Shown: positions 1,911 to 30,284, numbered from the stretch's first letter. The stretch: DNA of 31,520 bases from a virus (IMGVR_UViG_2917870735_000002); one strand, 5' to 3'. The notes: a model not told the origin generated them from the sequence alone. Made by a program: numbers and translations.

Positions 1911-1924
1911 TATAATTTTCCTTA

Positions 1925-4921: not shown

Positions 4922-4967
4922 AAACACCACTAAAATGTCTTTCGCCATCGCTTCTTGAGGCCAGCAT

Positions 4968-7614: not shown

Positions 7615-8676
7615 TCATGCCGCACCTTTATCTATTGATTCTATGTAACTTAAATCAAAGTTTAGGTGCAACCTTTCCGGTATTTCGGGATCGTTGTTTA
7701 CGGCCAGCATGAAACGGCGCTGGATGGGGGCAATTTCGCTTTTCTTATAAATGCGTTCAGCCTTTTCAACATCCCCCAGTCCGGCAGTGTTCTGCGGGAC
7801 AATACCGGCGAGGCCGGCAGGGAAACGGTGCGCGTTCAGAATATCCTGGGCGCTGATGTTCTTGATGTTGGCAAATTCATCCTTAGCAGAAATATCACCC
7901 ATTTCAATGAATTTGATGGCGTCGCCGTCTCCACCGGGAATGTTTACAAGGATGGTGGAGAAGTTCCCGATCCCTTTGCTGTCACGCAGCTGCTGTTCAA
8001 TTTCTTCCTCCATTTCGTCCGTCATGCTGGGATCGCGGGTATAAAGAATTCCGCCTGTGTGTGCACCGTTGTGGTAGTAGCGGCGTCGGAAAATGACCGC
8101 TTCACTGTTAAGTAACGCGGAATGCACACCGCCGATGTAGTCCGGCAGTCCGTAGATATGCTGTTGAGGGTCATACATTTTGATAAAGATAATATCTTCT
8201 TCTGGCCATATCTGCGGTTCCCCTTCCTGTAACACTACGTAGTCACCGGGCTTATCCAGGGCGTTATCTCTGACTTTGCGGCGGCGTATATACAGACCGG
8301 GTAAGGGTTCAAGTGCGATCACGTCTCCCCAGCCGTTACGAATTTTGGCAATCGCAATATCCCCAAAGGTTATATAGTCATACGCTGCCGCTTCCAGCTG
8401 GTCGTGAATAAGTCCGCCACCCAAGTAATCTGAAACAATCATGTTTTTGCGGGCGTGAATGATGCCGCCGTGCTGACCGTTAAGATTAATCAGCTGTGCG
8501 AGTGCCAGCCGGTCAATCGGCTGGGTGAAGTGATCGGCGGCATTGTCGTACCAGATATCACGGTAATCTGTGCCGGTAGTCAGAACCGGTTCAGGTTTGC
8601 CGAATGTGATAATGCTCATCTTTTTTGATTTGTCGCCGCGCTGGTCGCGCTTAACAAAGCGTTTCTTTTTACTCAT
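7615..8676 (-). CDS. Q: portal protein (P2 gpQ family)
   Basis: 353 aa; conserved blocks (GLPDYIG...LNSEAVIFRRRYYHNGAHTGGILY; DILNAHRFPAGLAG...GDVEKAE) match P2 Q from memory. Start ATG overlaps terminase stop (ATGA). Confidence 0.92.
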   Translation of the reverse strand: MSKKKRFVKRDQRGDKSKKMSIITFGKPEPVLTTGTDYRDIWYDNAADHFTQPIDRLALAQLINLNGQHGGIIHARKNMIVSDYLGGGLIHDQLEAAAYDYITFGDIAIAKIRNGWGDVIALEPLPGLYIRRRKVRDNALDKPGDYVVLQEGEPQIWPEEDIIFIKMYDPQQHIYGLPDYIGGVHSALLNSEAVIFRRRYYHNGAHTGGILYTRDPSMTDEMEEEIEQQLRDSKGIGNFSTILVNIPGGDGDAIKFIEMGDISAKDEFANIKNISAQDILNAHRFPAGLAGIVPQNTAGLGDVEKAERIYKKSEIAPIQRRFMLAVNNDPEIPERLHLNFDLSYIESIDKGAA

Positions 8677-10448
8677 GCAGCCTCTTTCCTTACACCCCAG
8701 CGGGATTTAGGTTTGTTTTCATAGTTAAGGGGTTCGTTATGCAGACCGTGGGTAATCGCCCAGAACGCCTCCGCGTGGCCAGTATCCTGGCTGCGGTCAG
8801 CGACAAACGTCATGGCGTTGCCGCTTTGTGTGGTGGTTCGGCGCACAGACATAAAGCTGGCAGCGATCTCTTTCAGGTTTTTATCCCACTCAATACGTTG
8901 GCTTTCCACCACGTCCACCGCTTTCAGCACCAGTTGATTTTTGGTGTTCAGGTCGTAACGAATAGGGACGGCCACGCGCATGGCAAAATGCTGAATGTTG
9001 TCAAAAACACCTTGGCCAATGCCGGTAACGTCCACACCCAGATAAGTGAAGTTGTATTTTTTAACCAATTGCTCGATCTGTTTTGCCTGGTACCGGAAGT
9101 TCATGCCTTTCCAGTAAATCACCTTCAGAACGCGGAATTTCTCCACGGCGAGTATCGGCGGTGCGATGATGACAAAACAGGACAAATCACCGCTGCGAGC
9201 CGGGTCAAAGCCACCCCATACCGGCCTGTCACCAAATGGCCGCGCTGCATCAGGGTTGTGATCCTGCCAGGTGTCGATTTCAACACCGCAGGCTTCCAGA
9301 TCGGAAAAGCTGAAAACGGAATCTTTGCTGTCAACGAACACGCACATATAGAGCATGTTAAAAGTGGCGTCGTTGTAGCGGTTGCGAAGTTTCTCGATGT
9401 TCGCCAGGTTGAAACCGCCCGCAATGGCATCTCCCATCGTAATGACGTAGCGCCATTGCCCATCCGGGCAGAGTCGCCCGCCGTCACGCATTTCGTTAAA
9501 GGACGGAAACTTAATGGCCGCACGTTTTTTACTGCCTTGTTTCCACTCATCGCCCGTCCAGAACGGGTAAGCCTGGTGCGTTTTTGCCGATGGCGTTGAA
9601 AAATAGGTGATGCGCCACTTGTCATGTGTGGCCATTGCGCTGGCCACTTCGTTAAGTTTTGCAAAGTTTGGCACCCAGAAATATTCGTCACAGTACAGGT
9701 GGCCACTGTAGGACTGGGCGGTGTTTTTGTTGGTGGAGAGAAAACGCAGTTCTGCGCCGTTGCTTAAGCGGATCGGGTTGCCGGTTAGCGTAATACCGAA
9801 ATACTGCTCTGCAATATTCACGATGTAAGACCGGAACACTTCAGCCTGTGCTTTTGACGCTGACAGAAAGATTTGCGGATCGCCGGTCATCACCGCATTT
9901 TCAAACGCTTCAAACGCAAAATACCAGGTCGCACCGATCTGGCGGCTTTTCAGGATGTTCCTGACAAGCTGGCCAATGTTATTGCGCAGGTGTTTCTGAT
10001 ATTCAAAAAGATGTTCCTCAGCCCATGCGTCAAAGTCCTCCTGCGTCAGCGACGTAATATCGTTTTTCTTGTATTTCCGTTTGCTGCGTGGTTCGTCGTC
10101 ATTGTTGCCCCGCGCAGCTGCTTGCCCGGAACTCTGACCGCTGGCCATTTTCTCTTTGTGTTTATTACTCTGCGCACGCAGTTTCGTGGCATGAGCAATG
10201 AGCATGTCCATTTCTTTCAGGTCGAGATCGGTTTTGTTATCGCGGCTGGCCAGCAGCTGGTAACGGCGTTCAATTGCTTCCTCTGTGCTTTCAAAACTGA
10301 GCAAATCCGCCCAGCTGTATTTCTCCGCCCAGTAGTAAATGATCCGCGCATTCGGCAGATTTAATTCAGATGCGATTTCCTTTGGCGTATAGCGGCGCAG
10401 ATAAAGTGCGCGAACAACGCCTTTTAATTCTTCAGAGTATTTAGCCAT
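8673..10448 (-). CDS. P: terminase large (ATPase) subunit, P2 gpP family
   Basis: 591 aa, same length class as P2 gpP; divergent from O/N/M/L exactly as in P2; coupled to Q. Confidence 0.88.
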   Translation of the reverse strand: MAKYSEELKGVVRALYLRRYTPKEIASELNLPNARIIYYWAEKYSWADLLSFESTEEAIERRYQLLASRDNKTDLDLKEMDMLIAHATKLRAQSNKHKEKMASGQSSGQAAARGNNDDEPRSKRKYKKNDITSLTQEDFDAWAEEHLFEYQKHLRNNIGQLVRNILKSRQIGATWYFAFEAFENAVMTGDPQIFLSASKAQAEVFRSYIVNIAEQYFGITLTGNPIRLSNGAELRFLSTNKNTAQSYSGHLYCDEYFWVPNFAKLNEVASAMATHDKWRITYFSTPSAKTHQAYPFWTGDEWKQGSKKRAAIKFPSFNEMRDGGRLCPDGQWRYVITMGDAIAGGFNLANIEKLRNRYNDATFNMLYMCVFVDSKDSVFSFSDLEACGVEIDTWQDHNPDAARPFGDRPVWGGFDPARSGDLSCFVIIAPPILAVEKFRVLKVIYWKGMNFRYQAKQIEQLVKKYNFTYLGVDVTGIGQGVFDNIQHFAMRVAVPIRYDLNTKNQLVLKAVDVVESQRIEWDKNLKEIAASFMSVRRTTTQSGNAMTFVADRSQDTGHAEAFWAITHGLHNEPLNYENKPKSRWGVRKEAA

Positions 10449-10502
10449 GCGGATAATTATGCCGTGGCTGTGATGAAAAAACGGTGGTGTTAATTCGTGT
10501 CT

Positions 10503-10527
10503 GTTCGGTAAAGCGTTATAACCGAAC
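10503..10527. promoter_or_regulatory. dyad GTTCGGT-N11-ACCGAAC in divergent P/O late promoter region
   Basis: 7-bp perfect inverted arms, 11-bp spacer, in the 161-bp gap between P and O starts. Not the TGT-N12-ACA Ogr-site pattern I recall for P2. Confidence 0.35.
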
Positions 10528-10609
10528 TGTTCAGAATAAAGCGTAATGCGGTGGCGGTTTTATTTGGCAATAATTGATTTGCAGCGTCAGGGAGTGGAAC
10601 AGGGGGGAT

Positions 10610-11413
10610 ATGTCACATTTAAAAACTGACTGGCTGTGTGTTGCTACTGAAGGGGATACCGTTGATGGCAGGGTAATTAAACGGCAGTGGATCATTGATA
10701 TGGGGGAAACCTATGACTATAGCCACTATGTCGCTTTAATCTGGCCAGAACATGAGGATGATTGCGGGAATTTTGGTGAAGTGCTGGAAGCCACCTGGAA
10801 TGATGGTGAAGATGGACAGGCACGGTTATATGTCAGCCTTTGCCCGAATATGCGTCTGATTTTCGCAAATCATGAAGATCAGCTTTTGTTCTTCTCCATT
10901 GAGCCGGAAGATAACTGGCGCGGTAGCGGGCGTACTTACCTGAAAGGGCTGGCGGTAACAGATACACCTGCCAGCGTTGGCACCACACGGCTGCGCTTTA
11001 GTAGTCGGCGCAATAAATTAACAAAGCAGGGATATTACAGCTGTGTAATTTCCCGCGACGGAAAAATTAAACAGGAAGCAAGAATGAAGAACTGGCAGAA
11101 ACTGTTTGGTATTAAGCCAAAGTTTGAAGATGAAACGACGCAGGATAATCTTGCTCCGGATGAAGATAAATTACAGGCGCTTGCCAATGTGGTGAACGAT
11201 CTGGAAGCGCGAGTGGCGAAAATTGAAACTCAACTGAATGACGTTCAGGGTGATGTTGACACAATTGCTGAAGTGGTGGATACGCAGGAATTTGCGGCAA
11301 TTCGCGATAATGCAAAAGAAATCGTAACCCGCTTTAACGAACTGGGTAATAAAAACACCCGTACACCGGGGCGTACTATAAAAGATAAAGCCGGGAAATT
11401 TAATTTCCTGTAA
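10610..11413 (+). CDS. O: capsid scaffolding protein (P2 gpO family)
   Basis: Track ORF from 10574; ATG 10610 gives MSHLKTDWLCVATEGDTVDGRVIKRQ, matching P2 O N-terminus (VEGDTCDGRVI) as I recall, plus GLAVTDTPAS block. Long purine-rich G-run upstream. Confidence 0.82.
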   Translation: MSHLKTDWLCVATEGDTVDGRVIKRQWIIDMGETYDYSHYVALIWPEHEDDCGNFGEVLEATWNDGEDGQARLYVSLCPNMRLIFANHEDQLLFFSIEPEDNWRGSGRTYLKGLAVTDTPASVGTTRLRFSSRRNKLTKQGYYSCVISRDGKIKQEARMKNWQKLFGIKPKFEDETTQDNLAPDEDKLQALANVVNDLEARVAKIETQLNDVQGDVDTIAEVVDTQEFAAIRDNAKEIVTRFNELGNKNTRTPGRTIKDKAGKFNFL

Positions 11414-11475
11414 TTCGCTTTATTGCTAATTAGCCCAGAATATATTTTTAAATCGCTTAATTGCGAGGGAGTTTT

Positions 11476-12498
11476 ATGCACCTTAATAATCGTGCGCGGG
11501 ATTTACTGGATAAATATTCGGCGGGGATGGCGCAGCAGTTTGGTGCGCGTGATACCAGTCGATATTTTTCCCTGAATGACCCACAGGAAAATGCGCTGCG
11601 TCTTGCGTTGCTGGAGTCCGTCGAGTTCCTGAACATGATCACCTGTCTGGATGTTGACCAGCTGAGTGGCCAGGTGATCTCTGTCGGTTCCTCTGTGCTG
11701 CATACCGGCCGCAGCGAAAATGGCCGTTTCATTCGTCAGGTAGGCGTTGACGGTAATGACTATTCCCTGGTTGAAACAGACAGCTGTGCCGCGTTGCGCT
11801 GGGATCTGCTTTCTGTCTGGGCAAACGCCGGTAAGGACGAAAACGAGTTTTACAACCTGGTACAGGCATTCACCACGCAGGCTTTTGCGCTGGATATGTT
11901 GCGCATTGGTTTTAACGGTAAAAGTCGCGCGAAAACCACTGATCCGGAAACTAACCCGAACGGCGAGGATGTGAACGTTGGCTGGCATGAGCGTATGAAA
12001 ACGCTGCTGGGCGGCAATCAGATTATGACGGATGCCGTGGTGCTTGATGAGGCCGGGGATTACAAATCACTGGATGCAATGGCGTCCGATCTGATTAACG
12101 CCAAAATCCCGGCACAGTTCCGCAATGACCCGCGTCTGGTTGTTCTGGTTGGTGCCGATCTGGTCGCAGCTGAACAATACCGACTGTATCAGGCAGCAGA
12201 CCGTCCGACTGAAAAAATCGCGGCGCAGATGCTGGGAAGCACCATTGCTGGCCGTCCGGCTATTATCCCGCCGTTTATGCCGGGTAAACGCATGGTGGTT
12301 ACGCCGCTTTCTAACCTGCACATCTACACCCAGCGCAATACCCGTATGCGTAAGGCGGAGTTTGTTGAAGATCGTAAGCAGTTCGAAAACAAATACCTGC
12401 GCAATGAAGGTTACGCGGTGGAAGTGCCGGAGCTGTATGCGGCTATTGATGAATCCGCTGTGACAATCGGCAAAGTCTCCGAACCGGTGGAGGGTTGA
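11476..12498 (+). CDS. N: major capsid protein (P2 gpN family)
   Basis: Track ORF starts at TTG 11461; ATG 11476 with GAGGGAG upstream. Blocks IGFNGKSRAKTTDPETNP, VGWHERMK, GDYKSLDAM, DPRLVVLVG parallel P2 N from memory. Confidence 0.9.
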   Translation: MHLNNRARDLLDKYSAGMAQQFGARDTSRYFSLNDPQENALRLALLESVEFLNMITCLDVDQLSGQVISVGSSVLHTGRSENGRFIRQVGVDGNDYSLVETDSCAALRWDLLSVWANAGKDENEFYNLVQAFTTQAFALDMLRIGFNGKSRAKTTDPETNPNGEDVNVGWHERMKTLLGGNQIMTDAVVLDEAGDYKSLDAMASDLINAKIPAQFRNDPRLVVLVGADLVAAEQYRLYQAADRPTEKIAAQMLGSTIAGRPAIIPPFMPGKRMVVTPLSNLHIYTQRNTRMRKAEFVEDRKQFENKYLRNEGYAVEVPELYAAIDESAVTIGKVSEPVEG

Positions 12499-12501
12499 TA
12501 A

Positions 12502-13203
12502 ATGGCACTTTCCCCCGCGCAGCGTCACAGCCAGCGTATTGCGATGGAACAAAAGCTGAAGCGCAGCCAGGCACTGGAAACCACGGAAAGTATGCACCTG
12601 CTGGTCAGGGCGCTGGAAACTGATGTGGAATATATTCGAAGTCTGCCTACCATCGCCGAGCGCGTCGAGGACAAACGCAATGTGCTGTTGCCGCGCTGGG
12701 TTCCCACTGTGGAAGCCTATCTGGAGAGTGGCCAGGAGTATGCAAATCCGGTTTTCGCCTGGTGTGTTATCTGGCTGTTTGACGTGGGCGATCTGGATAA
12801 GGCGCTGGACTGGGCTGACATTGCTATCAGCCAGCAGCAGGCAACCCCGGATCGGTTACGCAGCAATTTTCCCACTTTCGTGGCGGATACGATGCTGGCA
12901 TGGGCGCAGGAAACCGCAGGGCGCGGGGAAAGTGTGGAGCCTTATTTCACCCGCACGTTTGAGCGGGTGGCAAACACCTGGCGACTGCATGAGCAGGTGA
13001 CGGCCAAATGGTTCAAGTTTGCCGGTCAGGAGTTGCTACGCAATGACGATGGCCAGAAAACGGCGGCGGGTGTGGATGATATTGAAACGCTGGAAAAAGC
13101 CGATCAGCTGCTGGCTATTGCAGAAAAACACTACTCAAAAATTGGCGTCAAAACGGCGCGGCAGACAATTGCCGCCCGTATCCGAAAACTGACTCAAGGG
13201 TAA
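12502..13203 (+). CDS. M: terminase small/endonuclease subunit (P2 gpM family)
   Basis: 233 aa; N-terminus MALSPAQRHSQRIA resembles P2 M (MTSPAQRH...); 3 bp after N stop. Confidence 0.8.
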   Translation: MALSPAQRHSQRIAMEQKLKRSQALETTESMHLLVRALETDVEYIRSLPTIAERVEDKRNVLLPRWVPTVEAYLESGQEYANPVFAWCVIWLFDVGDLDKALDWADIAISQQQATPDRLRSNFPTFVADTMLAWAQETAGRGESVEPYFTRTFERVANTWRLHEQVTAKWFKFAGQELLRNDDGQKTAAGVDDIETLEKADQLLAIAEKHYSKIGVKTARQTIAARIRKLTQG

Positions 13204-13248
13204 AGACTACCGCAAGCCAGGCGGACGCGGTGGAGGGCAGAACACCTT

Positions 13249-13752
13249 GTGTGTAACTGCGCCGTGGAAACCGGCCAGTCCGCCTTTTTCGGGGGATTTA
13301 TGTTTAGCGGAAAGCCGCTGGATTATCAGGATGAACCGCTGTCCAATAACGGATTCTGGCCAGATCTGAATCTGAAGGATTTTCAAGCGCAGCGGTCACT
13401 ACCGCCAGATATTGACGCTGACACCATCAGCCAGGCGTTGCTTGCAGCGGTGGCGGAGGTGAATGCGGAGCTGGAAAACGTGGAGTCCAGTTGGATAGCG
13501 AAAGGCTACACGCTGGCGGCAGAGGTACCAGGTGTAAAAATGGGCGGACTGAACAGCCTGTGCGCCCAGTATATGAAGGCCGTTTTTGCCAGGGCAAAAG
13601 CGGATCTGCTGGGGGAGTTCGCCACTATCGGGCGGCGCGATACTCATCCGGGACAGGAAAGTATGGAAACCCGAGCGGGGTTACTGGCTGAAGCATCGGT
13701 GGTGATCCGCCGTATGAAAGGGCTGAAACGGGCAACGGTGAAAAAAGTATGA
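13249..13752 (+). CDS. L: head completion/stabilisation protein (P2 gpL family)
   Basis: 167 aa from GTG 13249 (GGAGGG upstream); alternative ATG at 13300 with GGGGG upstream. GFWPDLNLKDF resembles the P2 L FFFPDIDPK block; length matches the 169-aa P2 L from the GTG start. Confidence 0.7.
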   Translation: MCNCAVETGQSAFFGGFMFSGKPLDYQDEPLSNNGFWPDLNLKDFQAQRSLPPDIDADTISQALLAAVAEVNAELENVESSWIAKGYTLAAEVPGVKMGGLNSLCAQYMKAVFARAKADLLGEFATIGRRDTHPGQESMETRAGLLAEASVVIRRMKGLKRATVKKV

Positions 13753-14255
13753 GCCAGACGCAGATCCAAAGCCTGACCACATTTTTTAAAGATAACGTCC
13801 CGCCCCGTGCGATGCAGTCATTTGACAGTGTGCTGGATGAGATGAAGTTCATCCCTGCGGCGAAGGATTACGGGCTGGGACAATATCGCCAGGCGGTTAT
13901 CCGATATGACGCGGTTCTGAGCTGGGAGCGTTTCCCGTATCGCCTTTGCCCGCCGCAGTTGCTTATGTCCTTACTGGCTGCGTGGCTGGATGATGCTGAC
14001 AGGGAACTAGTGGATGAAGTGGGGCTGAGTGAAGCTGAACCTGACTGGGATGTGTCGGTGGAGGATGAGGAAGTGGCCACTGTGGTGCTGACTGTTCCGA
14101 TGGTAGAAGAACTGGTGATCAGGCAGGACGAAAACGGGGCTATTCCGTGGCGGGGTGAGCGCTGGTCACTGGTTGAGCCTGAAATCTGGACGGCACTGAC
14201 CGCCAGTATTTACAGCGTGGATGAGGCCGGTGCGCCGGTGGGGGATAGCGAATGA
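13749..14255 (+). CDS. putative head-tail joining / tail completion protein (168 aa, acidic)
   Basis: ATG overlaps L stop (ATGA); located between head completion and virion morphogenesis genes. Function by position only. Confidence 0.45.
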   Translation: MSQTQIQSLTTFFKDNVPPRAMQSFDSVLDEMKFIPAAKDYGLGQYRQAVIRYDAVLSWERFPYRLCPPQLLMSLLAAWLDDADRELVDEVGLSEAEPDWDVSVEDEEVATVVLTVPMVEELVIRQDENGAIPWRGERWSLVEPEIWTALTASIYSVDEAGAPVGDSE

Positions 14256-14956
14256 TTGCTGGTGGCGAGCTGAATAAAAAACAGCTGGCCGAATTGCGCA
14301 AGGCACTGGCCAGCATGGAGCTGCCGCCGAGAAAACGGCAGCGTCTGATCTGGCGTCTGGCCAAATATGGCGTGATTGCTGCGGCAAAACGGCATGTGCG
14401 CAATCAGGAATCCCCGGATGGCAAGTGGCCGGGACGTAAGACAAAACGCAAAGGGAAGATGCTGCGCAACCTGCCAAAGCTGCTGCATATCCGTGAAATG
14501 CCAGAAATTCAGGCTGTGCGGATCTATTTACAGGGTGGTGGATACCGGAACGGGGAAGCGCCGGTACCAGCCGGAACGGTGGGGTACGCGCAACAAAACG
14601 GAATGCGCGTAAAGGTCAGCCGCAGTAATCAGCCACGGAAGGCAGAGGCCGGGAAAATGGCGACGCCTGCCCAGGCCAAAAAATTACGGGCGCTGGGGTA
14701 CCGGGTGAAAACCGGTAAGAGATGGAAAAAGCCCACACTGGGCGAAATCACCAAAACGATGCCATACAGCCAGTCGGGGCTGCTGATTCGAAAACTCAGT
14801 AGTAAAGCCGTGAAAACCAGCTGGACAGTGGATCTTCCTGCTCGTGTGTTTCTGGGCATGAATGATGATGAATTTGACAAGGCGCTGGCGCGTCAGCTTC
14901 AGGCCATCGGCTTTGGCTGGGACGTTAAGGCGCAGGATATTAAGGGGAAAGCATGA
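14252..14956 (+). CDS. phage virion morphogenesis protein (P2 gpS / Mu G-like family)
   Basis: 234 aa, basic; RKRQRLIWRLAKYGVIAAAKRHVRNQESPDGKWPGRK resembles the virion-morphogenesis family signature as I recall. ATGA coupling to upstream gene. Confidence 0.55.
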   Translation: MIAGGELNKKQLAELRKALASMELPPRKRQRLIWRLAKYGVIAAAKRHVRNQESPDGKWPGRKTKRKGKMLRNLPKLLHIREMPEIQAVRIYLQGGGYRNGEAPVPAGTVGYAQQNGMRVKVSRSNQPRKAEAGKMATPAQAKKLRALGYRVKTGKRWKKPTLGEITKTMPYSQSGLLIRKLSSKAVKTSWTVDLPARVFLGMNDDEFDKALARQLQAIGFGWDVKAQDIKGKA

Positions 14957-16080
14957 CCTGGCCAATTGTGACCGTAAACCAGGTAAATCAGCTGATGGGT
15001 GAAACCAATGAGGTGGAACGCACACTGCTGTTTATCGGCACGGGTACCAAAAATGTGGGGAAAACGCTGGCGGTGAATGCCCAGAGTGATTTTGATTCAC
15101 TGCTGGGCGAGGAAGCCAGCCCGCTGAAAAATGATGTTCTGGCTGCGCTGGCGAACGCTGGCCAGAACTGGTGGGGGTTCATTCACGTCCTGCCAGCTGA
15201 CGCGGAGGCGGACGCCTGGGTGAAAGCGGTTTTAGCCGCGCAGGTGGTGTGCTCTGTGGAAGGCGTGGTGCTGTCTGACGATGTCACTGCTAAAGCGCAA
15301 GTAAATCAGGCAGTGACGTTACGAACCACCCTGATTTCAAAGTATGGCCGCTGGGTGTGGTTCATTCTGGCCGCACAGGGAGTGCAGGACGAAGAAGCCC
15401 AGGCTGATTACTTGGTTCGCTTGGCCACTCTTCAGGATGGGGTTGCAGAAAAGTCGGTTCAGTTGGTTCCCCGGCTGTGGGGAAATGAACCGGGTGTGCT
15501 GGCTGGTCGTCTGTGTAGCTGTATGGTGACTATTGCAGATAGTCCGGCGAGGGTTAAAACCGGTGCGCTGATGAATTTGGGCAGTGACGAAATGCCGGTT
15601 GATGGTACCGGAGAAGTTCTTGAGTTGGCCACACTTCAGGCGCTGGAAGCACAGCGTTTCAGTGTGCCAATGTGGTACCCGGATTATGACGGTTTTTACT
15701 GGTCAGATGGCCGCACGTTGGACGTTGAGGGCGGCGATTATCAGTCGATTGAAACTTTGCGCGTCGCGGATAAAGCTGCCCGCCGTGTTCGTTTGCTGGC
15801 TATCAGTAAAATCGCTGATCGTTCGCTGAATAGCACGCCAGGAAGTATCGCCGCACATCAGACACTGTTCGCCAGTCCACTGCGCGAAATGTCTACTGCG
15901 GCCAGCATTAATGGGGTGTCATTTCCCGGAGAAGTGAAGCCGCCGCAGGATGGTGATGTATCCATTGTCTGGAAGAACAAAAAGGCAGTTGATATTTACA
16001 TTGTGGTACGTACCTGGGAAGTGCCACTGCAAATCACCATCAGCCTGTTACTGGATGCCAGTCTGGAGGCTATAGCATGA
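14953..16080 (+). CDS. putative contractile tail sheath protein
   Basis: 375 aa, immediately followed by a coupled 151-aa gene and upstream of chaperone and tape measure; size close to P2 FI. Assignment positional; sequence does not obviously match P2 FI. Confidence 0.5.
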   Translation: MTWPIVTVNQVNQLMGETNEVERTLLFIGTGTKNVGKTLAVNAQSDFDSLLGEEASPLKNDVLAALANAGQNWWGFIHVLPADAEADAWVKAVLAAQVVCSVEGVVLSDDVTAKAQVNQAVTLRTTLISKYGRWVWFILAAQGVQDEEAQADYLVRLATLQDGVAEKSVQLVPRLWGNEPGVLAGRLCSCMVTIADSPARVKTGALMNLGSDEMPVDGTGEVLELATLQALEAQRFSVPMWYPDYDGFYWSDGRTLDVEGGDYQSIETLRVADKAARRVRLLAISKIADRSLNSTPGSIAAHQTLFASPLREMSTAASINGVSFPGEVKPPQDGDVSIVWKNKKAVDIYIVVRTWEVPLQITISLLLDASLEAIA

Positions 16081-16532
16081 CCAAACGTATTTCAGGTATG
16101 TCGTTTGACACTTATATGGATGGCGAACTGATCCATATCGAGAAAATTACGCTCGATATTACGGATAACAGCGTTGCCGCCCAGACGCGTGGCGTCCCTG
16201 ATGGGTATGTAGATGGCGATGTTGCCGCCGAAGGGGAGATTGAAGTCAGTTCAAAAACTCTTCAGGTGCTGACAACCAAAGCCCGCGCAGCGGGTTCATG
16301 GCGCGGACTTCCACCACTTGATTTTCTTTTCTATGCCAAAGCCAGTAGCGAAGAAATGAAGGTGGAGACGTTCGGCAATAAATTGCAGGTCAGCAACCTG
16401 CTGGATATTGATCCGAAGGGGGGCGGCGTGACCACGCACAAAATCAAATATTTCGTGACCAGTCCTAAATTCGTCAACATTAACGGTGTGCCGTATCTGG
16501 AAGCGGAAGCTACAGAAAACCTGATCGGATAA
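16077..16532 (+). CDS. putative tail tube protein
   Basis: 151 aa, ATGA-coupled to the sheath-like gene; size in tail-tube range. Positional assignment. Confidence 0.5.
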   Translation: MTKRISGMSFDTYMDGELIHIEKITLDITDNSVAAQTRGVPDGYVDGDVAAEGEIEVSSKTLQVLTTKARAAGSWRGLPPLDFLFYAKASSEEMKVETFGNKLQVSNLLDIDPKGGGVTTHKIKYFVTSPKFVNINGVPYLEAEATENLIG

Positions 16533-16542
16533 GGACATCGCA

Positions 16543-16845
16543 ATGCAAGAACATGAAAAGAGTCTGTATTCACTGCTAGTTATTGGGGGATTGATTGCTG
16601 TCGGCAATGTGCTGAACAGCAATGACCCGATTACGCCCCGCCTGTTTGCTGGCCGTGTGATCCTGGGCAGTCTGGTTTCTGTGGTAGCAGGGACGGCGTT
16701 GATTCAGATCCCGGATGCCAGTCCGCTGGCCATTCAGGGGCTGGGGGCTGCGTTAGGGATCGCTGGGTATCAAGCGGTGGAAGTGTGGCTGCGCAGGCGT
16801 GCTGTGGGAAAGCAGGATGGGAGCAAAAATAATGACTCTCAGTGA
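16543..16845 (+). CDS. holin
   Basis: 100 aa; ATG 16543 with AAGGA upstream; three hydrophobic segments then charged tail RRRAVGKQDG; directly upstream of endolysin. Confidence 0.65.
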   Translation: MQEHEKSLYSLLVIGGLIAVGNVLNSNDPITPRLFAGRVILGSLVSVVAGTALIQIPDASPLAIQGLGAALGIAGYQAVEVWLRRRAVGKQDGSKNNDSQ

Positions 16846-17236
16846 AAAACAGCAATTGTTTACTGTCATGGTGGCCAATCTGATCCTCTGGGCAGAAGAA
16901 CATGGCTACCGACTGACATTCGGTGAGGCTTACCGTACACCAGAACAGGCTGCGCTGAACGAGAAGAAAGGCAGTGGTATTCCTAACAGTCTGCACACCC
17001 AGCGGTTGGCGGTGGATTTCAATCTGTTCGTGAACGGTCAGTACAAAACCCGTACAGAAGATTATCAGCACTGGGGGAATACTGGGAATCACTGGGTGGT
17101 TCCTGGGGCGGACGCTTCAAATCCAGACCTGATGGTAATCATTTCAGTCTGGAACATAACGGGGTGCGCTGATGAGCAGCGGGCAGTGGTTGGTTGTGGT
17201 GGCGCTGGCGTTTGTCTGGGGCTGGCTAACCGCTGA
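16832..17236 (+). CDS. endolysin, peptidase M15-like (134 aa)
   Basis: ATG 16832 with GGGAG 8 nt upstream (track ORF from GTG 16799). H-x6-D motif (SLHTQRLAVD) and downstream His (GNHW) consistent with M15 zinc peptidases. Confidence 0.68.
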   Translation: MTLSEKQQLFTVMVANLILWAEEHGYRLTFGEAYRTPEQAALNEKKGSGIPNSLHTQRLAVDFNLFVNGQYKTRTEDYQHWGNTGNHWVVPGADASNPDLMVIISVWNITGCADEQRAVVGCGGAGVCLGLANR

Positions 17237-17510
17237 CTGGCGGCGTGATAGCTTAGAGCTGGCAATCAATACAGCGGCGCAGGTGGCCGGTAATGAATCG
17301 CGAAAAGCAATGCAGGGTATTGCCAGTGATTCGGCCAGAGCGCTGGAAGATAAACTGGAGGCGTTAAAAAATGTGGCACCGCGAGAGATACGCACTGAAG
17401 TGCTTAAGCCTGTTTTTACCAGTCGTTGCCTGTCTGATGAGTTTGTCAGCATGTACAACCGTGCCGCAACCGGTACCGAACGTGCGTTATCAGGAAAATC
17501 TGAAAACTAA
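17172..17510 (+). CDS. i-spanin (Rz-like)
   Basis: 112 aa; N-terminal TM (WLVVVALAFVWGWLTA) followed by charged helical periplasmic region; overlaps endolysin 3' end and contains the o-spanin start. Confidence 0.65.
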   Translation: MSSGQWLVVVALAFVWGWLTADWRRDSLELAINTAAQVAGNESRKAMQGIASDSARALEDKLEALKNVAPREIRTEVLKPVFTSRCLSDEFVSMYNRAATGTERALSGKSEN

Positions 17511-17670
17511 ATGTGCCACGCAGTTGCCGCGCCTGAATGGTGCGACAGGAAAAGACTCAGCGGAATTACTGACGATTTATCTTGAGTTATATGGTCAGTG
17601 TGCTGCACGTCATAATCAGTTAGTGGATGAAATTATTTTAAGAGAGAGAGTTATTGATGGAACAAATTAA
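17371..17670 (+). CDS. o-spanin (Rz1-like lipoprotein), partly embedded in the i-spanin gene
   Basis: 99 aa in a different frame from the i-spanin; signal peptide with lipobox LSAC (Cys at residue 28); ATG 17371 with GGAG 10 nt upstream. Overlapped architecture like P2 lysB/lysC. Confidence 0.6.
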   Translation: MWHRERYALKCLSLFLPVVACLMSLSACTTVPQPVPNVRYQENLKTKCATQLPRLNGATGKDSAELLTIYLELYGQCAARHNQLVDEIILRERVIDGTN

Positions 17671-17914
17671 ACTGTGTGTTTGTGGTGTTGAAATTATTTT
17701 TGAACCAAACCAGACTGCCTACAATAAATTTATTAATGAAATGGCAATGGACAATAAGGTTGCTCCTGCGCATAACTATCTGACACGAATTGTTGCGATT
17801 GAAAGTAAAGCCTCACTTTGTGAAGTATTAAATCGTCCGGGTGCTGCACTTCAACTGGTTGGCAAAGTAAATGATATTTATGCGCCTGAACTAGAAATTG
17901 AAGTAAAAAACTGA
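17657..17914 (+). CDS. tail assembly chaperone (P2 gpE-like), short form
   Basis: 85 aa from ATG 17657 (GAGAGAG upstream); immediately upstream of tape measure; LNRPGAALQLVG resembles the RPG block of gpE as I recall. Ends in slippery heptamer A AAA AAC (17905-17911). Confidence 0.55.
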   Translation: MEQIKLCVCGVEIIFEPNQTAYNKFINEMAMDNKVAPAHNYLTRIVAIESKASLCEVLNRPGAALQLVGKVNDIYAPELEIEVKN

Positions 17915-18105
17915 CAAAGCGAGTCCATGAAATTGAAATGAATGGACTCGAACAATATTTAATTCTACGCCGTCATTATTTACCACATGGTCAGGATTCC
18001 GTTGATGATATCGCCGCCGCTATCTGGCTGGACAATCGTCACTGGGAATATACGGGAATAGCTGTGGCCAATGGTGTGGCAAAAGCATTTAAAGGCAGTG
18101 AATGA
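17657..18105 (+). CDS. tail assembly chaperone, predicted -1 programmed frameshift fusion product (E+E'-like)
   Basis: The -1 frame is open from 17902 to stop 18103-18105 and overlaps the short form only across A AAA AAC. Extension reads KKLTKRVHEIEMNGLEQYLILRRHYLPHGQDSVDDIAAAIWLDNRHWEYTGIAVANGVAKAFKGSE; its TGA overlaps the tape measure ATG (ATGA). Confidence 0.4.
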
Positions 18106-19292
18106 AACAATTAGATTTTACATTAAGCCTGATTGATAAATTATCCCGCCCGTTAAAACAGGTGCAAGGTAACGTCACCGGCTTTGCGGAAAAATCAAAA
18201 GCAGCCTTTATGCAGATCGGTGGTGGCGTTCTGGCGCTGGCAGGTATCGGGATGGAGATCAAAAGTGCTTTATCACCGGCAATTGAAATGTATGACGCGC
18301 TGAATGATGCCGCCGCAAAAGGTATTGATGATTCGGCACTTAAGACAGTTCAGCGTGATGCCCTGCGCTTCAGTACAACCTATGGTGCCAGTGCGGTGGA
18401 GTTTGTTAAATCCACGGAAAATATTAACGCTTCCATTGCCGGACTGACGGGTAATGAACTGCCGAAGGTGACGAAAGTCGCCAATACCCTGGCTTTTGCG
18501 CTCAAGTCCACAGCGGCGGACACGGCGGAATTTATGGGGCAGATGTTCGGTAACTTTTCCGCCGATGCCACCAGACTGGGCAAGGTTGAATTTGCCGAGC
18601 AGCTGGCAGGCAAGATGGTTTATATGCGCAAAACCTTTGGCACAGAAATGGCCACTATCAAGGATTTGATGGAAGGTGCGCGCGGCGTCGGGACTAACTA
18701 CGGCGTGGGACTGGATGAACAACTGGCCGTGCTGGGGCAACTTCAGCGGACGCTGGGAACAGAAGCCAGCAGCGCCTATGAAGGGTTTATGACCGGCGCG
18801 GTTGATGGCGCTAAAAAGCTGGGGCTGTCCTTTACTGACTCCACCGGCAAAATGTTGTCCATGCCTGAAATGCTGATCAAGTTGCAAGGCAAATATGGCA
18901 AAAGCCTTGAAGGGAATCTGAAAGCCCAGGCGGAACTGGATGCAGCCTTTGGTAACAGTTCTGCAGTGGTTAAACATCTTTACGGCAATGTCGCGTTACT
19001 TCAGCGGAACATCACCGAACTGGGCAGTACGGACGGCCTGAAGCGTACCCAGGAAATGGCACAAAAAATGGTTAAGCCGTGGGATCGCTTTGTACAAATC
19101 CTGAAAGCCATTCAGACCGTGATCGGACTGACGCTGATCCCGGTGCTGTATCCGGTTCTGAATCGCCTGGCTGATATGGGGCAGACCTTTGCTCGTTGGA
19201 TGCAGTTATTTCCTAACATTGCCCGTGTGATTGGTTATGCGTCGGTGGCACTACTGAGCTTTGCCGCCGTGGGTGCGGTTGCAATATCGTGA
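18102..19292 (+). CDS. tail tape measure protein, N-terminal ORF
   Basis: 396 aa, Ala/Gly-rich helical with hydrophobic C-terminal segment; directly follows chaperone. Confidence 0.7.
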   Translation: MKQLDFTLSLIDKLSRPLKQVQGNVTGFAEKSKAAFMQIGGGVLALAGIGMEIKSALSPAIEMYDALNDAAAKGIDDSALKTVQRDALRFSTTYGASAVEFVKSTENINASIAGLTGNELPKVTKVANTLAFALKSTAADTAEFMGQMFGNFSADATRLGKVEFAEQLAGKMVYMRKTFGTEMATIKDLMEGARGVGTNYGVGLDEQLAVLGQLQRTLGTEASSAYEGFMTGAVDGAKKLGLSFTDSTGKMLSMPEMLIKLQGKYGKSLEGNLKAQAELDAAFGNSSAVVKHLYGNVALLQRNITELGSTDGLKRTQEMAQKMVKPWDRFVQILKAIQTVIGLTLIPVLYPVLNRLADMGQTFARWMQLFPNIARVIGYASVALLSFAAVGAVAIS

Positions 19293-20068
19293 TGGGGGTA
19301 TCCAGATTCATCATGATGGGATTACGTGGGATCTGGGGGGCGTTAACGGCGGTTACGAAAATCTACACGGCGACTGTCTGGCTGGCGCAAATGGCGGTAA
19401 TCGCCTGGAATACCACGCTGAAGTTTTTACGCGGCGCGTTACTGGCGGTACGCATGGCCGCAATGATGACCGGAATTGGTATCAATCTGATGAGCTGGCC
19501 AATCCTGCTTGTGATTGGTGCCATTGCGCTGCTTGTTGCTGGTTGTTATCTGCTGGTTAAGCACTGGAACACGATAAAAGCATCGGTGATGAATACCGAA
19601 GCCTTCCAGGCATGTGCTGCCGTAGTGAAATGGCTAGCGGGGATCTTTGTTTTAGCCTGGCAATATGTCAGTGATGGATGGAACAGTTTTATTTCTATGC
19701 TGACAGGATTTTCACCATCTGAGGCATTAAATGGAATGGCCACCGGTATTATGTCACTGTTTGATATTGTCTGGAACTCAATCAAAGAGGGATTTCTTAA
19801 GTCGTGGAACTGGATTGTTCAGAAACTGAATGAAATTCCCGGCGTGGATATTTCTCTGGCGAGTGAAACCTTACAGCCGTTAACTGGTAATACGCTGTCT
19901 ACGGGGGGCGATTTAAAAGGTGTGGATAATGGCGGTATCAGTAAAACAATCAGCAGCAACACAACATCCGTAATCGATAACAGCCGGAAAATTGGTGAAG
20001 TGCATTTCCATACCAAAGAAGCATTATCTCCACTCCAGCTTATGGAATGGCAGGAGCTTGGTGCATGA
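19292..20068 (+). CDS. tape measure protein C-terminal portion, or separate hydrophobic tail protein
   Basis: 258 aa from ATG 19292 (track gives GTG 19289); -1 frame relative to preceding ORF, joined at TGATG; multiple hydrophobic segments typical of tape-measure central regions. Confidence 0.55.
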   Translation: MGVSRFIMMGLRGIWGALTAVTKIYTATVWLAQMAVIAWNTTLKFLRGALLAVRMAAMMTGIGINLMSWPILLVIGAIALLVAGCYLLVKHWNTIKASVMNTEAFQACAAVVKWLAGIFVLAWQYVSDGWNSFISMLTGFSPSEALNGMATGIMSLFDIVWNSIKEGFLKSWNWIVQKLNEIPGVDISLASETLQPLTGNTLSTGGDLKGVDNGGISKTISSNTTSVIDNSRKIGEVHFHTKEALSPLQLMEWQELGA

Positions 20069-20394
20069 GTAATATTCTTTATATTGATTTGCTGATTCAG
20101 GGCGGTGATTTTGTTCTGAATACCGGTAATGAACCTGAATTATGTAATAACCGAAAAAGTATCGGACAGGACATTATTCATTCCATTATTGAAAGTGGTT
20201 TGGCTACGGAATTAATAGCCGAACGTAGCCCGACAATGAGAGCGGATATTTTTACCCGTATGGAATTACTGATTGAATATGATGAACGCATTGTGCCAGG
20301 TACGGTGGAAATCAGTGAAGAAAGTCAGAAGCGGCTGTGGGTAACCGCGAGTACATACGATTTTGGTGGGATCTCTGCGCAGGTGGATTTATGA
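20065..20394 (+). CDS. putative baseplate assembly protein (gpW position, 109 aa)
   Basis: ATG 20065 overlapping upstream stop (ATGA), GGAG 9 nt upstream; immediately precedes baseplate J-like gene. Confidence 0.45.
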   Translation: MSNILYIDLLIQGGDFVLNTGNEPELCNNRKSIGQDIIHSIIESGLATELIAERSPTMRADIFTRMELLIEYDERIVPGTVEISEESQKRLWVTASTYDFGGISAQVDL

Positions 20395-21575
20395 CGGAAA
20401 AACCGCAGGTCGATTTTGAAGAAGTGGTGAAGGACAGCGGTATGCCGGTAACGGAATCCGAAGTGTGGGAACACTTCAATGCGATTGCAGCGGATGAGGG
20501 AATTATCACCAATACATCCCGAATGTCACCGTTCTGGCGATTAATCACCGCCATTGTGACCGCTCCTGTGATGTGGCTGAAAGACGTTCTGGTATTGACC
20601 GTGCTGGCTAATATGTTTGTGGCAACGGCCAGCGGGAGCATGTTGCGTCTGCTGGCCTGGGCTGTGAACGTCACGGCAAAACCGGCGAGCGCTGCACAGG
20701 GGGTGATCCGCTTCTTCAAAGAAGATGCAAAGGCCGTTGTGACGGTGAAAGCCGGGACGGTTATCCAGACAGAACGCATTAACGGGCGAGTTTATGAGCT
20801 GGCCACCACTGAAGATGTGGTGATCGCTTCCAGTGCAGCCAGCGCATTACTGCCGGTGCAAGCCACTGGTACCGGGGGCGCTTATAACCTTGCGCCTGGA
20901 TACTACCGCATTCTGCCGGTGGCGGTCAGTGGTATCAGCCATGTGGCCAGTGAGGAAAACTGGCTGACCGTGCCGGGAGCTGACGAGGAGAGCGATGATG
21001 AACTGCGCGAGCGTTGTCGCAATCAGTTCAATCTGGTGGGGAATTACCACACTGATGCGGTTTATCGCTCAATGATCGCCAGCGTTGCTGGGTTGAGTAT
21101 CGATAGGATTTTCTTTGAGCATGAAGCACCGAGGGGACCTGGAACAGCAAACGCATTTCTATTGCTGGATAGTGGGGTGACCTCGGCACCGTTCTTGGAT
21201 GCAGTGAATGACTATATCAACACCCAGGGGCATCACGGACATGGTGATGATATGCAGTGTTATCCCATTCCGGAAACGTTTCACGATCTGGCCGTTACGG
21301 TTTATGTCGAGAATCTGAATAATTTCAGCGATGAGGAAAGGAAAAGCCTGAAGGATGGCGTTGAAAACATTATCCGCTGCGCTTTTCGTGAAAATGCTGA
21401 TTTTGACGTCAGAAAGACGTGGCCATATTCACGGTTTTCATTTTCGCAACTGGGGCGGGAAATTCATAAAACCTTTGCACAGACGGAATCACTGACATTT
21501 TCGCTCGGAGACATTACTAGTGAACTGGGCGTGCCGCGTCTGAAATCACTGACGGTGAATATTGATAATGAATGA
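20391..21575 (+). CDS. baseplate assembly protein J-like
   Basis: 394 aa from ATG 20391 (overlaps upstream stop); position W-J-I-fibre as in P2; size in range for baseplate J family. Confidence 0.6.
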   Translation: MTEKPQVDFEEVVKDSGMPVTESEVWEHFNAIAADEGIITNTSRMSPFWRLITAIVTAPVMWLKDVLVLTVLANMFVATASGSMLRLLAWAVNVTAKPASAAQGVIRFFKEDAKAVVTVKAGTVIQTERINGRVYELATTEDVVIASSAASALLPVQATGTGGAYNLAPGYYRILPVAVSGISHVASEENWLTVPGADEESDDELRERCRNQFNLVGNYHTDAVYRSMIASVAGLSIDRIFFEHEAPRGPGTANAFLLLDSGVTSAPFLDAVNDYINTQGHHGHGDDMQCYPIPETFHDLAVTVYVENLNNFSDEERKSLKDGVENIIRCAFRENADFDVRKTWPYSRFSFSQLGREIHKTFAQTESLTFSLGDITSELGVPRLKSLTVNIDNE

Positions 21576-22155
21576 GTTTATGGAAAAGCTGGCCGGGATG
21601 GTCTTGCCTTCCTGGATGAATAAAGGCGAACCGGGGAAATTGCTGAAAACGGCGCAGCGTTTTTGGGCTGAGGTTTACAACTGGGTTACCTGGCCAATAA
21701 ATCAGTTTGATCCGCTGACGTGTACACCGGCATTACTGAACCTGCTGGCTTATGACCGGGATATTACCCGCTTTGATGGTGAACCGTTGAGCCTGTTTCG
21801 CAAACGCGTGGCTTTTGCCTTCGTTAATGCGCGGGATGCTGGTTCAGTAGAGGGATTTATTAATATCTTTGATCGGTTGGGCATCGGTTATGTGGAACTG
21901 TTAGAACGGCAACCGGATATCGACTGGGATGTGATTCTGGTTCGGGTTACAGACAGCCAGATTGCAGACAACACGCAGCTGCTGATCCAGATAATCCGCC
22001 AGTATGGGCGAACATGCCGCCGTTATCAGTTTGAGGTGATCACGTCTGAAAGCCTGGTAATCCAGGCTGGGTGGGATCATGGGGAATATGTGGTTTTCCC
22101 GGCGACGTTAGCAGGGACGGAAGCCCGCAGCGCAACATTCAGCGCGAGTTTGTAA
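21568..22155 (+). CDS. tail protein I-like (baseplate, tail-fibre proximal)
   Basis: 195 aa from ATG 21568 (ATGAATGA overlap with J stop); located between J-like gene and tail fibre, as P2 gpI. Confidence 0.55.
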
Positions 22156-27316: not shown

Positions 27317-27913
27317 TCAGTTGTTGTGTAGTTCAAGATAGTTAGAGGTGGAGTGCGTATCAAGCGGTAGTAGTTGTGCGGCTCTGCGGGTTATAAAGAC
27401 ACTATTGGCAGGAATGTTTCGGTTAACGAATGACATAGCACCAATTGTCACATTATCACCAATGGTCAGATCATCACCGATGATGCATGAATTTGCGCCA
27501 ATCTCGACATTGTCTCCGATCCTGATGGCTTTGATTCCTTCAACTGTTTTTAATCCAATCGTTGTGTTTTGTCGGATACGAACATTTTTTCCAATCACAG
27601 CCTGGGGACAAATGACTATTCCAACGAAGTGATAAATTTTGAATTTTTCCCCGATCTGTGCCCCCAATCCAATATCAGTATTGTATTTTGAAACAAGTCT
27701 CCGGTGGATTCTTCGTGCCCACTTAATACTTGATTTCCCTCCCTGACAGTAAAGGCAATTCGCTATCCTCCACCAACACATGAATCTGTGTCCGGGTTGT
27801 CTCCAGCAACGTAGTATGATTCTCCTCCAGGAGAAATTTTTACTGCTGTGCAGTATGTCCGCGCACAACAACTTCTTCATATCCTCATAATGCGACTTTT
27901 TGTTGTTGCTCAT
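27317..27913 (-). CDS. hexapeptide-repeat acetyltransferase, serine acetyltransferase (CysE)/WcaB-like
   Basis: 198 aa; ATG 27913 with AGGGAGA upstream. Helical N-terminus (HRFMCWWRIANCLY) then left-handed beta-helix repeats (DIGLGAQIGEKFKIYHFVGIVICPQAVIGKNVRIRQNTTIG ... IGDNVEIGANSCIIGDDLTIGDNVTIGAMSFV) paralleling the CysE core pattern. AT-rich; convergent with the last tail gene. Confidence 0.75.
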   Translation of the reverse strand: MSNNKKSHYEDMKKLLCADILHSSKNFSWRRIILRCWRQPGHRFMCWWRIANCLYCQGGKSSIKWARRIHRRLVSKYNTDIGLGAQIGEKFKIYHFVGIVICPQAVIGKNVRIRQNTTIGLKTVEGIKAIRIGDNVEIGANSCIIGDDLTIGDNVTIGAMSFVNRNIPANSVFITRRAAQLLPLDTHSTSNYLELHNN

Positions 27914-27928
27914 AAATTATTCTCCCTA

Positions 27929-27945
27929 ATAATCCTGAGGATTAT
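27929..27945. promoter_or_regulatory. 17-bp perfect palindrome ATAATCCTGAGGATTAT adjoining the acetyltransferase RBS
   Basis: 8-bp arms around a central G, verified base by base; 16-32 bp upstream of the start codon at 27913. Confidence 0.45.
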
Positions 27946-28466
27946 CGTACATGAGAATGATCTGATTTTCTGCTAACAACATTAAGTTATGTGGTCGGAA
28001 CTGATAATTGGCTACTTAATCCCAAATAATTAGTTGAATTACTAACAAAACATCTTTCTTATCTTGTCATAGATGTCGGCAGAGGGATTATTAACCCTTT
28101 AATAACAAACCTAACTTGGTCACTAAGTATAAAAGAACAGAATTGTAGCGTTGCGCTGGTATGGTGATATGGCGACAAAATAAATCCTTTGCAGACAAAA
28201 ACGGCGCTACACCGCACCCGCCTGCGGTTTCTGGATCTGGAAAATTTTTCAGTTTTATTTTTTTACAAACAGCACCGCCAGACCGCGCCACGGTTGGCTG
28301 CTTGCCAAAGAACAGGAACTGAAAAGATTGAAAAGAATTTCAGCATTTTTCAGTTTAGAGGATCTGTAAAGGATCTAAGTGGAAAGGCAAGCAATTGAAA
28401 TATAATAATAAATTTTATATTTGTGGAGTGGAGAAGATCAAATGTCGAAGGCAATGTGTAGGAGGA

Positions 28467-28499
28467 AAAACCCGCAATGCCAGTTGTGGTGCGGGTTTT
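28467..28499 (-). terminator. rho-independent terminator-like hairpin (10-bp stem AAAACCCGCA/TGCGGGTTTT, 13-nt loop)
   Basis: Perfect stem verified; on the minus strand the stem ends in UUUU followed by UCCUCC; about 70 bp downstream of the minus-strand 122-aa gene. Confidence 0.55.
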
Positions 28500-28566
28500 A
28501 GGGGGATTAGATTAAATTCAGAAAGTGAAATTAGCATACCTATACTTTAAGTGCGCCAATAGGTAA

Positions 28567-28935
28567 TCAATTTTCATCAATATGACTTTCGTTTTCATCT
28601 TTGTACCATGTGGGCAAATTATCTGTAATTTGTTCATTAATTACATTTTGAGTGTCAGCAGGTAGCAGTTTAAAAATCTCAAAAATAAAGTTTGATATTT
28701 CAACTTTTACATCAGCAGTAGGGCCATAAAAATCATCTTTAACATAATCCCATTTATGCTTTATTAAAGTTGATTCTGGATATTGTATTTTGACTAAGCC
28801 AATTTGTTTGTAAATCCAATTTATGGCGCTATCTGCTCCAGAGAAGGCCTCATTACCGCTATTAATAAATGGCCCAACATCATAGACACGTTTAGTGTTA
28901 TTATCTAAAACTCTTACATAACAATTGGTTGCCAT
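28567..28935 (-). CDS. hypothetical small acidic protein (122 aa)
   Basis: ATG 28935 with AAGGTGG upstream; 15 bp after the 104-aa gene on the same strand; AT-rich; acidic C-terminus. Confidence 0.6.
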   Translation of the reverse strand: MATNCYVRVLDNNTKRVYDVGPFINSGNEAFSGADSAINWIYKQIGLVKIQYPESTLIKHKWDYVKDDFYGPTADVKVEISNFIFEIFKLLPADTQNVINEQITDNLPTWYKDENESHIDEN

Positions 28936-28950
28936 ACCCCACCTTTTTTA

Positions 28951-29265
28951 TTAGCCAATGTACCGTACACGATTGCCGTTATATAATGGCCATTCGTTTA
29001 GCAAATCTCTAAGTAGTCTTTCCATGTGAGTTGCATCTTCTGCTGCATTTTTTCCAACATAGTCATTTCCACGTTGGAAAGTTTCATAACGCATTGCCAT
29101 TGATGGGGTGTTTTCTTCAAAGCCAATTGGAGACAAATCATTTATTTGTGTAACTGCTACATCGCCAGATTTAGATACCCAGAGAATATGATGACCTGCG
29201 TTATCGTCGCAAGCAGAGATTAGTTGTGAGAGTTGGCTTACTGTAGGGTTATTGTTTAAGTTCAT
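28951..29265 (-). CDS. hypothetical small protein (104 aa)
   Basis: ATG 29265 with AAGAGG 8 nt upstream; first gene of a two-gene cassette. Confidence 0.6.
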   Translation of the reverse strand: MNLNNNPTVSQLSQLISACDDNAGHHILWVSKSGDVAVTQINDLSPIGFEENTPSMAMRYETFQRGNDYVGKNAAEDATHMERLLRDLLNEWPLYNGNRVRYIG

Positions 29266-29474
29266 TTAAATACCTCTTTTAATAAGATTTAGTTATAACG
29301 TAAAACAAGCCACAAATTGATTATCTATCCTCATAGGCTGCATATCAACTTTAGATTTTAGGCGGTGTGGATCGTGGTAAGCCAGAGATTATAGAGATAA
29401 GCCCGCTTGTAAGAACTGGCGCGGGCTGCACGTAAATTTATGAAATCTTCACAACTGAAATTTGTTCAGCGAAA

Positions 29475-30101: not shown

Positions 30102-30210
30102 GATTAGTCATCCTGACAGAATATTATAGGTACTTGAAATTATGCTTCCATTTGATTGCTAATGGAAGAGAATGGCCATATTTTGAATTTTATAAAAAAT
30201 ATGAGGGAGT

Positions 30211-30245
30211 ATCACCCTTACCACTCATGGAGTGGTAAGGGTGAT
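30211..30245. repeat. 35-bp inverted repeat ATCACCCTTACCACTC-atg-GAGTGGTAAGGGTGAT (16-bp perfect arms)
   Basis: All 16 pairs verified; between the 411-aa gene stop (30285) and acetyltransferase 2 start (30101). On the minus strand a T6 run lies about 10 nt after the stem. Confidence 0.8.
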
Positions 30246-30284
30246 TGAACTAAGTAAATATTGTAGAATAATCGAGCTAAAGTT

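Follow-up and report, generated by a model that had tools for sequence, protein, structure and literature searches.

The window (the whole stretch of DNA that was analysed, 31,520 nucleotides of IMGVR_UViG_2917870735_000002) is an almost complete ESSI-2-like prophage of the P2 family (Peduoviridae), integrated next to mntS in a chromosome of Escherichia coli type. P2-type capsid, terminase, portal, sheath/tube, baseplate and integrase genes, as well as CI, Cox, CII and Ogr genes, are present in collinear order, and the Pfam families found on an identical Logan contig agree with this assignment. At the left end, the following features were identified.

1-296, no strand assigned: host flank with mntS, on the attL side of the prophage (nucleotide identity to E. 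coli genomes and a match to MntS)
4-129, minus strand: mntS (MntS, 100% amino acid identity)
297-1337, minus strand: integrase gene (integrase domains), adjoining the host flank

The 296-nt host flank is found at 98.8% nucleotide identity in 5422 of 5426 complete E. coli genomes, and it is from the mntS flank that we infer an E. coli-type host. E. coli 1919D3 carries a prophage of the same type at the same site, between mntR and mntS; the right (mntR-side) end of the prophage and mntR fall outside the window. Neither significant att direct repeats nor tRNA genes were found in the window. The integrase gene is followed by genes for the CI/Cox/CII regulators, a replication gene, ogr, and the portal, terminase, scaffold, capsid, head completion, sheath and tube genes; beyond the tube lie the holin, M15 endolysin, Rz/Rz1-type spanin, tail chaperone, tape measure protein (TMP), DUF2590, baseplate J, tail fibre and hub genes. 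Over positions 17600-20400, the nearest phage records are those of Escherichia phages ESSI2_ev040, ev129, and ev015 (93.4-93.6% nucleotide identity), while ev239 (79%) and Cronobacter ESSI-2 (76%) are more distant.

The gene content of the window has some peculiarities. A 212-aa protein with bPH_3 and SHOCT domains is encoded at 1341-1979 (minus strand), between the integrase and CI genes. It belongs to PHROG 2700 (unknown function) and has no PADLOC match. Neither ev040 nor the 1919D3 prophage has it at this place, and it resembles a moron. At 4921-4968, the window is without the DNA adenine methylase that ev040 and 1919D3 have between the replication gene and DUF2732, and also without the exonuclease and RNA-binding genes found there in ev040. 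The tail completion gene has an in-frame 3-nt deletion at 14423 compared with all close relatives (234 aa versus 235 aa). Past the baseplate hub, a cargo region (27317-31520), shared only in part with E. coli prophages, contains genes for two acetyltransferases of the hexapeptide-repeat type, at 27317-27913 and at 29475-30101. It also has two small ORFs and, truncated where the window stops, an ORF of 411 aa. A Pfam search of the cargo genes other than the two small ORFs matched the acetyltransferases and returned nothing for the 411-aa ORF; the two small ORFs and the 411-aa ORF had no PHROG match, and a PADLOC scan of the cargo genes produced no matches.

To assess the intactness of the prophage, the full sets of annotated proteins from ev040 and from the 1919D3 prophage were run against the window with tblastn. 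From the integrase to the baseplate hub, every gene with a counterpart in ev040 or 1919D3 gave a single full-length match in one frame, with two exceptions: the TMP gene and the M15 endolysin gene. The relevant features of this part of the late region, all on the plus strand, are as follows.

16832-17236, plus strand: M15 endolysin gene with a one-base deletion after 17068 (matches in two frames and alignments; 134 aa versus 113 aa)
17657-17914, plus strand: tail assembly chaperone gene (PF10963), ending GTA AAA AAC TGA, with the heptamer A AAA AAC at 17905-17911
17911-18105, plus strand: DUF6890 ORF (PF21830), which extends the chaperone in the -1 frame and corresponds to P2 E' and lambda T
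18102-19292, plus strand: ORF1, N-terminal TMP fragment of 396 aa, comprising 394 native codons, two out-of-frame codons (Ile-Ser) and TGA (PF10145 and PHROG 28, by homology)
19280-19285, plus strand: TMP lesion, one base missing after C19282 (GGCCAAT or GGCAAAT in relatives, TGCAAT in the window)
19290-19294, plus strand: TGATG, in which the out-of-frame TGA (19290-19292) overlaps the native internal Met398 ATG (19292-19294)
19292-20068, plus strand: ORF2, C-terminal TMP fragment of 258 aa, native residues 398-655 in the native frame (PHROG 28, by homology)

An earlier note on this DNA had described two ORFs of 396 and 258 aa, the second in the -1 frame, joined at TGATG, and these coordinates were confirmed. 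ORF2 ends at 20068 and may start at GTG 19289 (259 aa) or at ATG 19292 (258 aa). Its frame is open upstream to 19217, as the note had it, behind a TAA at 19214-19216. ORF1 matches PF10145 (PhageMin_Tail) with an E-value of 5.7e-23, above the gathering score, and the two ORFs match consecutive parts of the TMP profile PHROG 28 (positions 224-620 for ORF1, E-value 3.4e-81; positions 605-724 for ORF2, E-value 4.8e-13). A hydropathy scan with 19-residue windows revealed hydrophobic blocks at aa 330-349, 373-408, 454-489, and 501-523 of the repaired TMP. The second of these spans the ORF1/ORF2 junction (~395), so ORF1 does end within a hydrophobic segment, and the two blocks that follow bear out the note's further hydrophobic segments in the second ORF.

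The location of the gene is that of a TMP. It is preceded by the tail assembly chaperone (PF10963) and DUF6890 genes and followed by DUF2590 and Baseplate_J, an order that is identical in ev040, ev239, ESSI-2, and 1919D3; with the mntS/mntR integration site, this makes the locus like those of the ev040 type. The ev040 TMP itself (YP_009877491.1; Peduoviridae, Quadragintavirus), whose orthologues are found in E. coli and Citrobacter prophages (e.g., WP_040080369.1 in E. coli 1919D3), is related to the window gene at 93-94% DNA identity, and at the protein level at 96% identity in the N-terminal part and 90-91% in the C-terminal part. Like TMPs in general, such as P2 gpT and lambda gpH, the window gene follows a frameshifting chaperone pair in the tail module and encodes a PhageMin_Tail domain and central hydrophobic segments, the comparison with P2 gpT being one of family profile only and the window copy being interrupted. 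Indeed, unlike the 1968-nt, 655-aa single ORF of the ev040 type, the window TMP is split into 396 and 258 aa: the polypeptide is not continuous, since the loss of one base disrupts the frame after codon 394. The split gene is thus a TMP pseudogene and not an intact member of the family.

The lesion was placed using DNA alignments against eight relatives. Where the relatives read GTGGCCAAT, the window reads GTTGCAAT, with the missing base 8 nt before the out-of-frame TGA. In codons, GCG GTG GCC AAT ATC GTG ATG GGG of the relatives (GCA AAT in one of them) has become GCG GTT GCA ATA TCG TGA, which includes a window-private G>T change at 19280, next to the deletion. At the TGATG stretch, intact genes read ATC GTG ATG GGG. 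Given the base missing after 19282, the stop/start overlap is therefore nothing but the native Ile-Val-Met (ATC GTG ATG) read one base out of frame. The TMP gene measures 1967 nt in the window (18102-20068), compared with a single 1968-nt CDS (655 aa) in ev040, ev239, and 1919D3, and insertion of one C restores a 655-aa ORF. In tblastn searches with the ev040 and 1919D3 TMPs, one frame gave the match to aa 1-394, at 96% identity, and the other the match to aa 391-655, at 90-91%. Counted against seven relatives, the only gaps specific to the window in the late region (16102-22000) are those after 17068 and after 19282. The idea of one tape measure of about 650 aa cut in two, by a single base missing somewhere in 19217-19290, is thus borne out, with an intact protein of 655 aa, collinear fragments, and the missing base at 19282/19283.

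A single TMP gene is the rule among relatives. Alignment to intact TMP genes, which the earlier note had proposed as a check, placed both ORFs collinearly on one protein. Among the best 120 homologues of the repaired TMP (from Citrobacter, Escherichia, Salmonella, Kluyvera, Pluralibacter, and Shigella), 119 are 655-656 aa long and one is 615 aa, and a single TMP gene is annotated in all 38 matching complete E. coli genomes. In a search of 1.84 billion cluster representatives, ORF2 aligned in distant relatives to residues ~398-655 of TMPs of 640-700 aa. In the collection searched, a single other contig encodes proteins identical to the 396-aa and 258-aa products, and a 43-nt sequence spanning the lesion had no exact match in species-representative genomes. 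The same stop/start junction was present in no relative, and a conserved two-gene arrangement was rejected; homologous phages with the same organisation, the outcome that would have spoken for a genuine pair of translationally coupled genes, did not turn up. Four ESSI2_ev phages with a single TMP gene are plaque-forming temperate coliphages from infant viromes (PMC6969025), and since these carriers were isolated as plaque-forming phages, the single gene can be taken as the working form.

Several database entries resembled a free-standing ORF2. P0179, a 258-aa look-alike with the same boundaries, is a gene cut by the end of a 1469-nt contig; P0147 is the C-terminal piece of a nonsense-mutated TMP, and P0146 is a deletion remnant. 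The starts of C-terminal fragments cluster at aa 358-413, which reflects ascertainment and a gene-caller effect and is no sign of a preferred split point.

Programmed -1 frameshifting is known from tail gene modules, where it joins two overlapping frames in lambda (G/GT) and P2 (E/E+E'). The example of this in the window is the chaperone/DUF6890 pair. After the heptamer at the end of the chaperone gene, the -1 frame continues as LTKRVHEIEMNG... through the DUF6890 ORF to 18105, where the DUF6890 stop overlaps the TMP start (ATGA). All nine relatives checked, Cronobacter ESSI-2 among them, have the same A AAA AAC heptamer, whereas an ATG present in the window at 17938 has no counterpart in most of the nine. 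The site fits the known G/GT and E/E+E' type of frameshifting. In public annotations, DUF6890 appears as a separate small gene or is left out. It could be argued that the same device, or transcriptional slippage, yields full-length TMP from the two frames, which do overlap over 19217-19292. The TMP junction is, however, unlike G/GT and E/E+E': it has no slippery site and is conserved in no relative. No X XXY YYZ heptamer is present in ORF1, no run of four or more identical bases occurs in the 19217-19292 overlap, the relatives, being in a single frame here, need no frameshift, and the conserved slippery site of the module lies elsewhere, in the chaperone gene. We consider recoding at the TMP junction exceedingly improbable.

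The second lesion is found in the M15 endolysin gene. Relatives have CTGCCACTG where the window has CAGCACTG (codons TAT CTG CCA CTG GGG and TAT CAG CAC TGG GGG, respectively). The endolysin of relatives is a 113-aa protein with PF13539, while the profile match of the 134-aa window ORF is limited to aa 1-80. The conserved C-terminus, ...GGRFKSRPDGNHFSLEHNGVR, is out of frame in the window; it holds the DGNHF motif, the His of which we presume, by analogy with other M15 peptidases, to be a zinc ligand. The possibility that the 134-aa form is a legitimate variant was rejected, as its two 134-aa cluster mates, P0144 and P0145, are independent lesions with frameshifts at different nearby positions; the DGNHF motif is lost in all, and the three proteins are grouped in one cluster because they have a common out-of-frame tail. 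A further E. coli protein, P0143 (112 aa), contains a frameshift that is restored ~10 codons later. Downstream, in the region 17172-17670, the spanin pair has an overlapped architecture: Rz occupies 17172-17510, and a 62-aa lipoprotein-type Rz1/LysC-like ORF (17482-17667) with the lipobox LSAC continues past the end of Rz and overlaps the beginning of the chaperone gene.

Could both deletions be errors of sequencing or assembly, the real genome having an intact 1968-nt TMP gene and an intact endolysin gene? The proteins encoded by ORF1, ORF2, and the 134-aa endolysin ORF are each found in exact form on one other contig only, perhaps derived from the same reads, and genes other than these two are all intact. 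In addition, both deletions (17067-17069 and 19280-19283, 2.2 kb apart) have the same odd form, NGCCA>N'GCA, in which the base two positions before the lost C has undergone a transversion private to the window; the chance of such a common form with a transversion at both sites is roughly one in twenty-five, and the shared form could stem from a systematic error in the consensus or be the signature of a compound mutation. On the other hand, neither deletion site is a homopolymer (there is a run of only two bases at each), and a noisy technology would be expected to produce more uncompensated coding indels, while none besides these two were found in ~27 kb of conserved genes. A 15.7-kb contig is present in the Logan assembly made from run SRR6156173, and 13,336 nt of it were retrieved; they are 100.000% identical to window positions 8102-21437, with 0 mismatches and 0 gaps, and cover both lesions. 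Because this is a separate, k-mer-based assembly, its identity to the window argues against an artefact of a single assembler, although the contig may come from the same run and reads as the window assembly. Comparable real lesions are also common in sister prophages, one of them being present in nine contigs from several samples. We infer that the TMP and endolysin deletions are probably real mutations. The sequencing indel that the earlier note had listed among its options is accordingly the less likely choice, albeit one that deserves a minor share of belief.

The age of the lesion can be judged from the differences private to the window lineage, which amount to 304 of 5798 sites (5.2%) relative to all seven aligned relatives. 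Most private TMP substitutions are synonymous, with 25 against 10 nonsynonymous ones in the N-terminal half and 30 against 24 in the C-terminal half; there is no excess over neighbouring genes, the ratio in baseplate J (44 to 20) being similar. Such a pattern fits a recent lesion, and equally well no lesion at all: since the TMP has been under purifying selection for nearly all of the divergence, the frameshift is either recent or not real.

The length of a tape measure protein determines how long the tail is. The tape measure of lambda (gpH) and of P2-type tails is one continuous chain that extends from the baseplate hub to the tail terminator; one end is anchored in the baseplate, and the other sets the point where polymerisation of the tube stops. 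With one base lost after 19282, the ribosome would read two wrong codons and stop at the TGA, making the 396-aa N-terminal fragment the main product. The 258-aa fragment would be made in small amounts at most, through inefficient termination-reinitiation at UGAUG; reinitiation is expected to be inefficient because no Shine-Dalgarno-like sequence is present within ~12 nt upstream of the ORF2 ATG. As a tape measure must be a continuous chain, the split TMP is most likely non-functional, and a cut chain should abolish or derange tail assembly. With both lesions, the prophage is probably unable to assemble normal tails or to lyse its host cell efficiently, and the TMP split together with the broken endolysin most likely makes the element cryptic.

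A functional two-piece tape measure would require both fragments to be made, by reinitiation at UGAUG, and to be joined through their hydrophobic segments into a working ruler. Overlapping stop and start codons are what such coupling would use, the split is unusually clean, with just three native residues lost, so that the two fragments may retain some residual function, and a cut inside the hydrophobic block at aa 373-408 could support non-covalent association. Yet this organisation is seen in no relative at any distance, the overlap is a by-product of the shifted native codons, the ORF2 start is poorly equipped for translation for the reason given above, and length determination needs one continuous chain, as established for lambda gpH and P2 gpT. 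The broken endolysin of the same prophage, moreover, fits decay rather than innovation. A working two-piece ruler is therefore very improbable. Marginally less credible still is the proposition that the split is tolerated in just this way, with the 396-aa and 258-aa fragments both produced through UGAUG coupling and reassembled via the hydrophobic segments; if true, it would show that a tape measure can consist of more than one covalent chain. The best supported of the options raised in the earlier note is the inactivating frameshift in a defective prophage, and the second frameshift, in the endolysin gene, strengthens it. We conclude that the two ORFs are likely a frameshifted TMP pseudogene in a recently inactivated, defective (cryptic) prophage and not a two-gene design, loss of function and reality of the deletions being deduced from the comparisons described above.

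Inactivated TMP genes were also found in other strains. Truncations judged from the protein ends to be stop mutations have arisen independently, one following aa 326 in 13 contigs and one following aa 275; another strain has a TMP frameshift near aa 270, and in a remnant left by a large deletion the early genes adjoin the C-terminal part of the TMP. In an ev239-like prophage, codon 364 (locus positions 2986-2988 in L012-L014) has become an in-frame stop, which divides the TMP into 363 and 287 aa in nine contigs from several samples, namely E. coli 7-233-03_S4_C1 (GCA_000713525.1) and eight others. As in the window, the TMP is cut in the central hydrophobic region of an otherwise complete prophage; the 7-233-03_S4_C1 case differs in that the lesion is an in-frame stop, the phage lineage is another one, and the endolysin is intact (113 aa). 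Because the codon-364 split is common to nine contigs, TMP pseudogenes evidently persist in lineages. Their repeated occurrence is ordinary prophage decay.

For annotation, the two ORFs should be merged into a single tape measure pseudogene with a frameshift, and the 134-aa "endolysin" should likewise be labelled as frameshifted. The prophage, despite its complete look, should be scored as probably defective. The phenomenon is of a known kind and implies no new biology; what the window would offer is a small, clean example of the earliest prophage decay, with two point lesions in late genes and every other gene intact.
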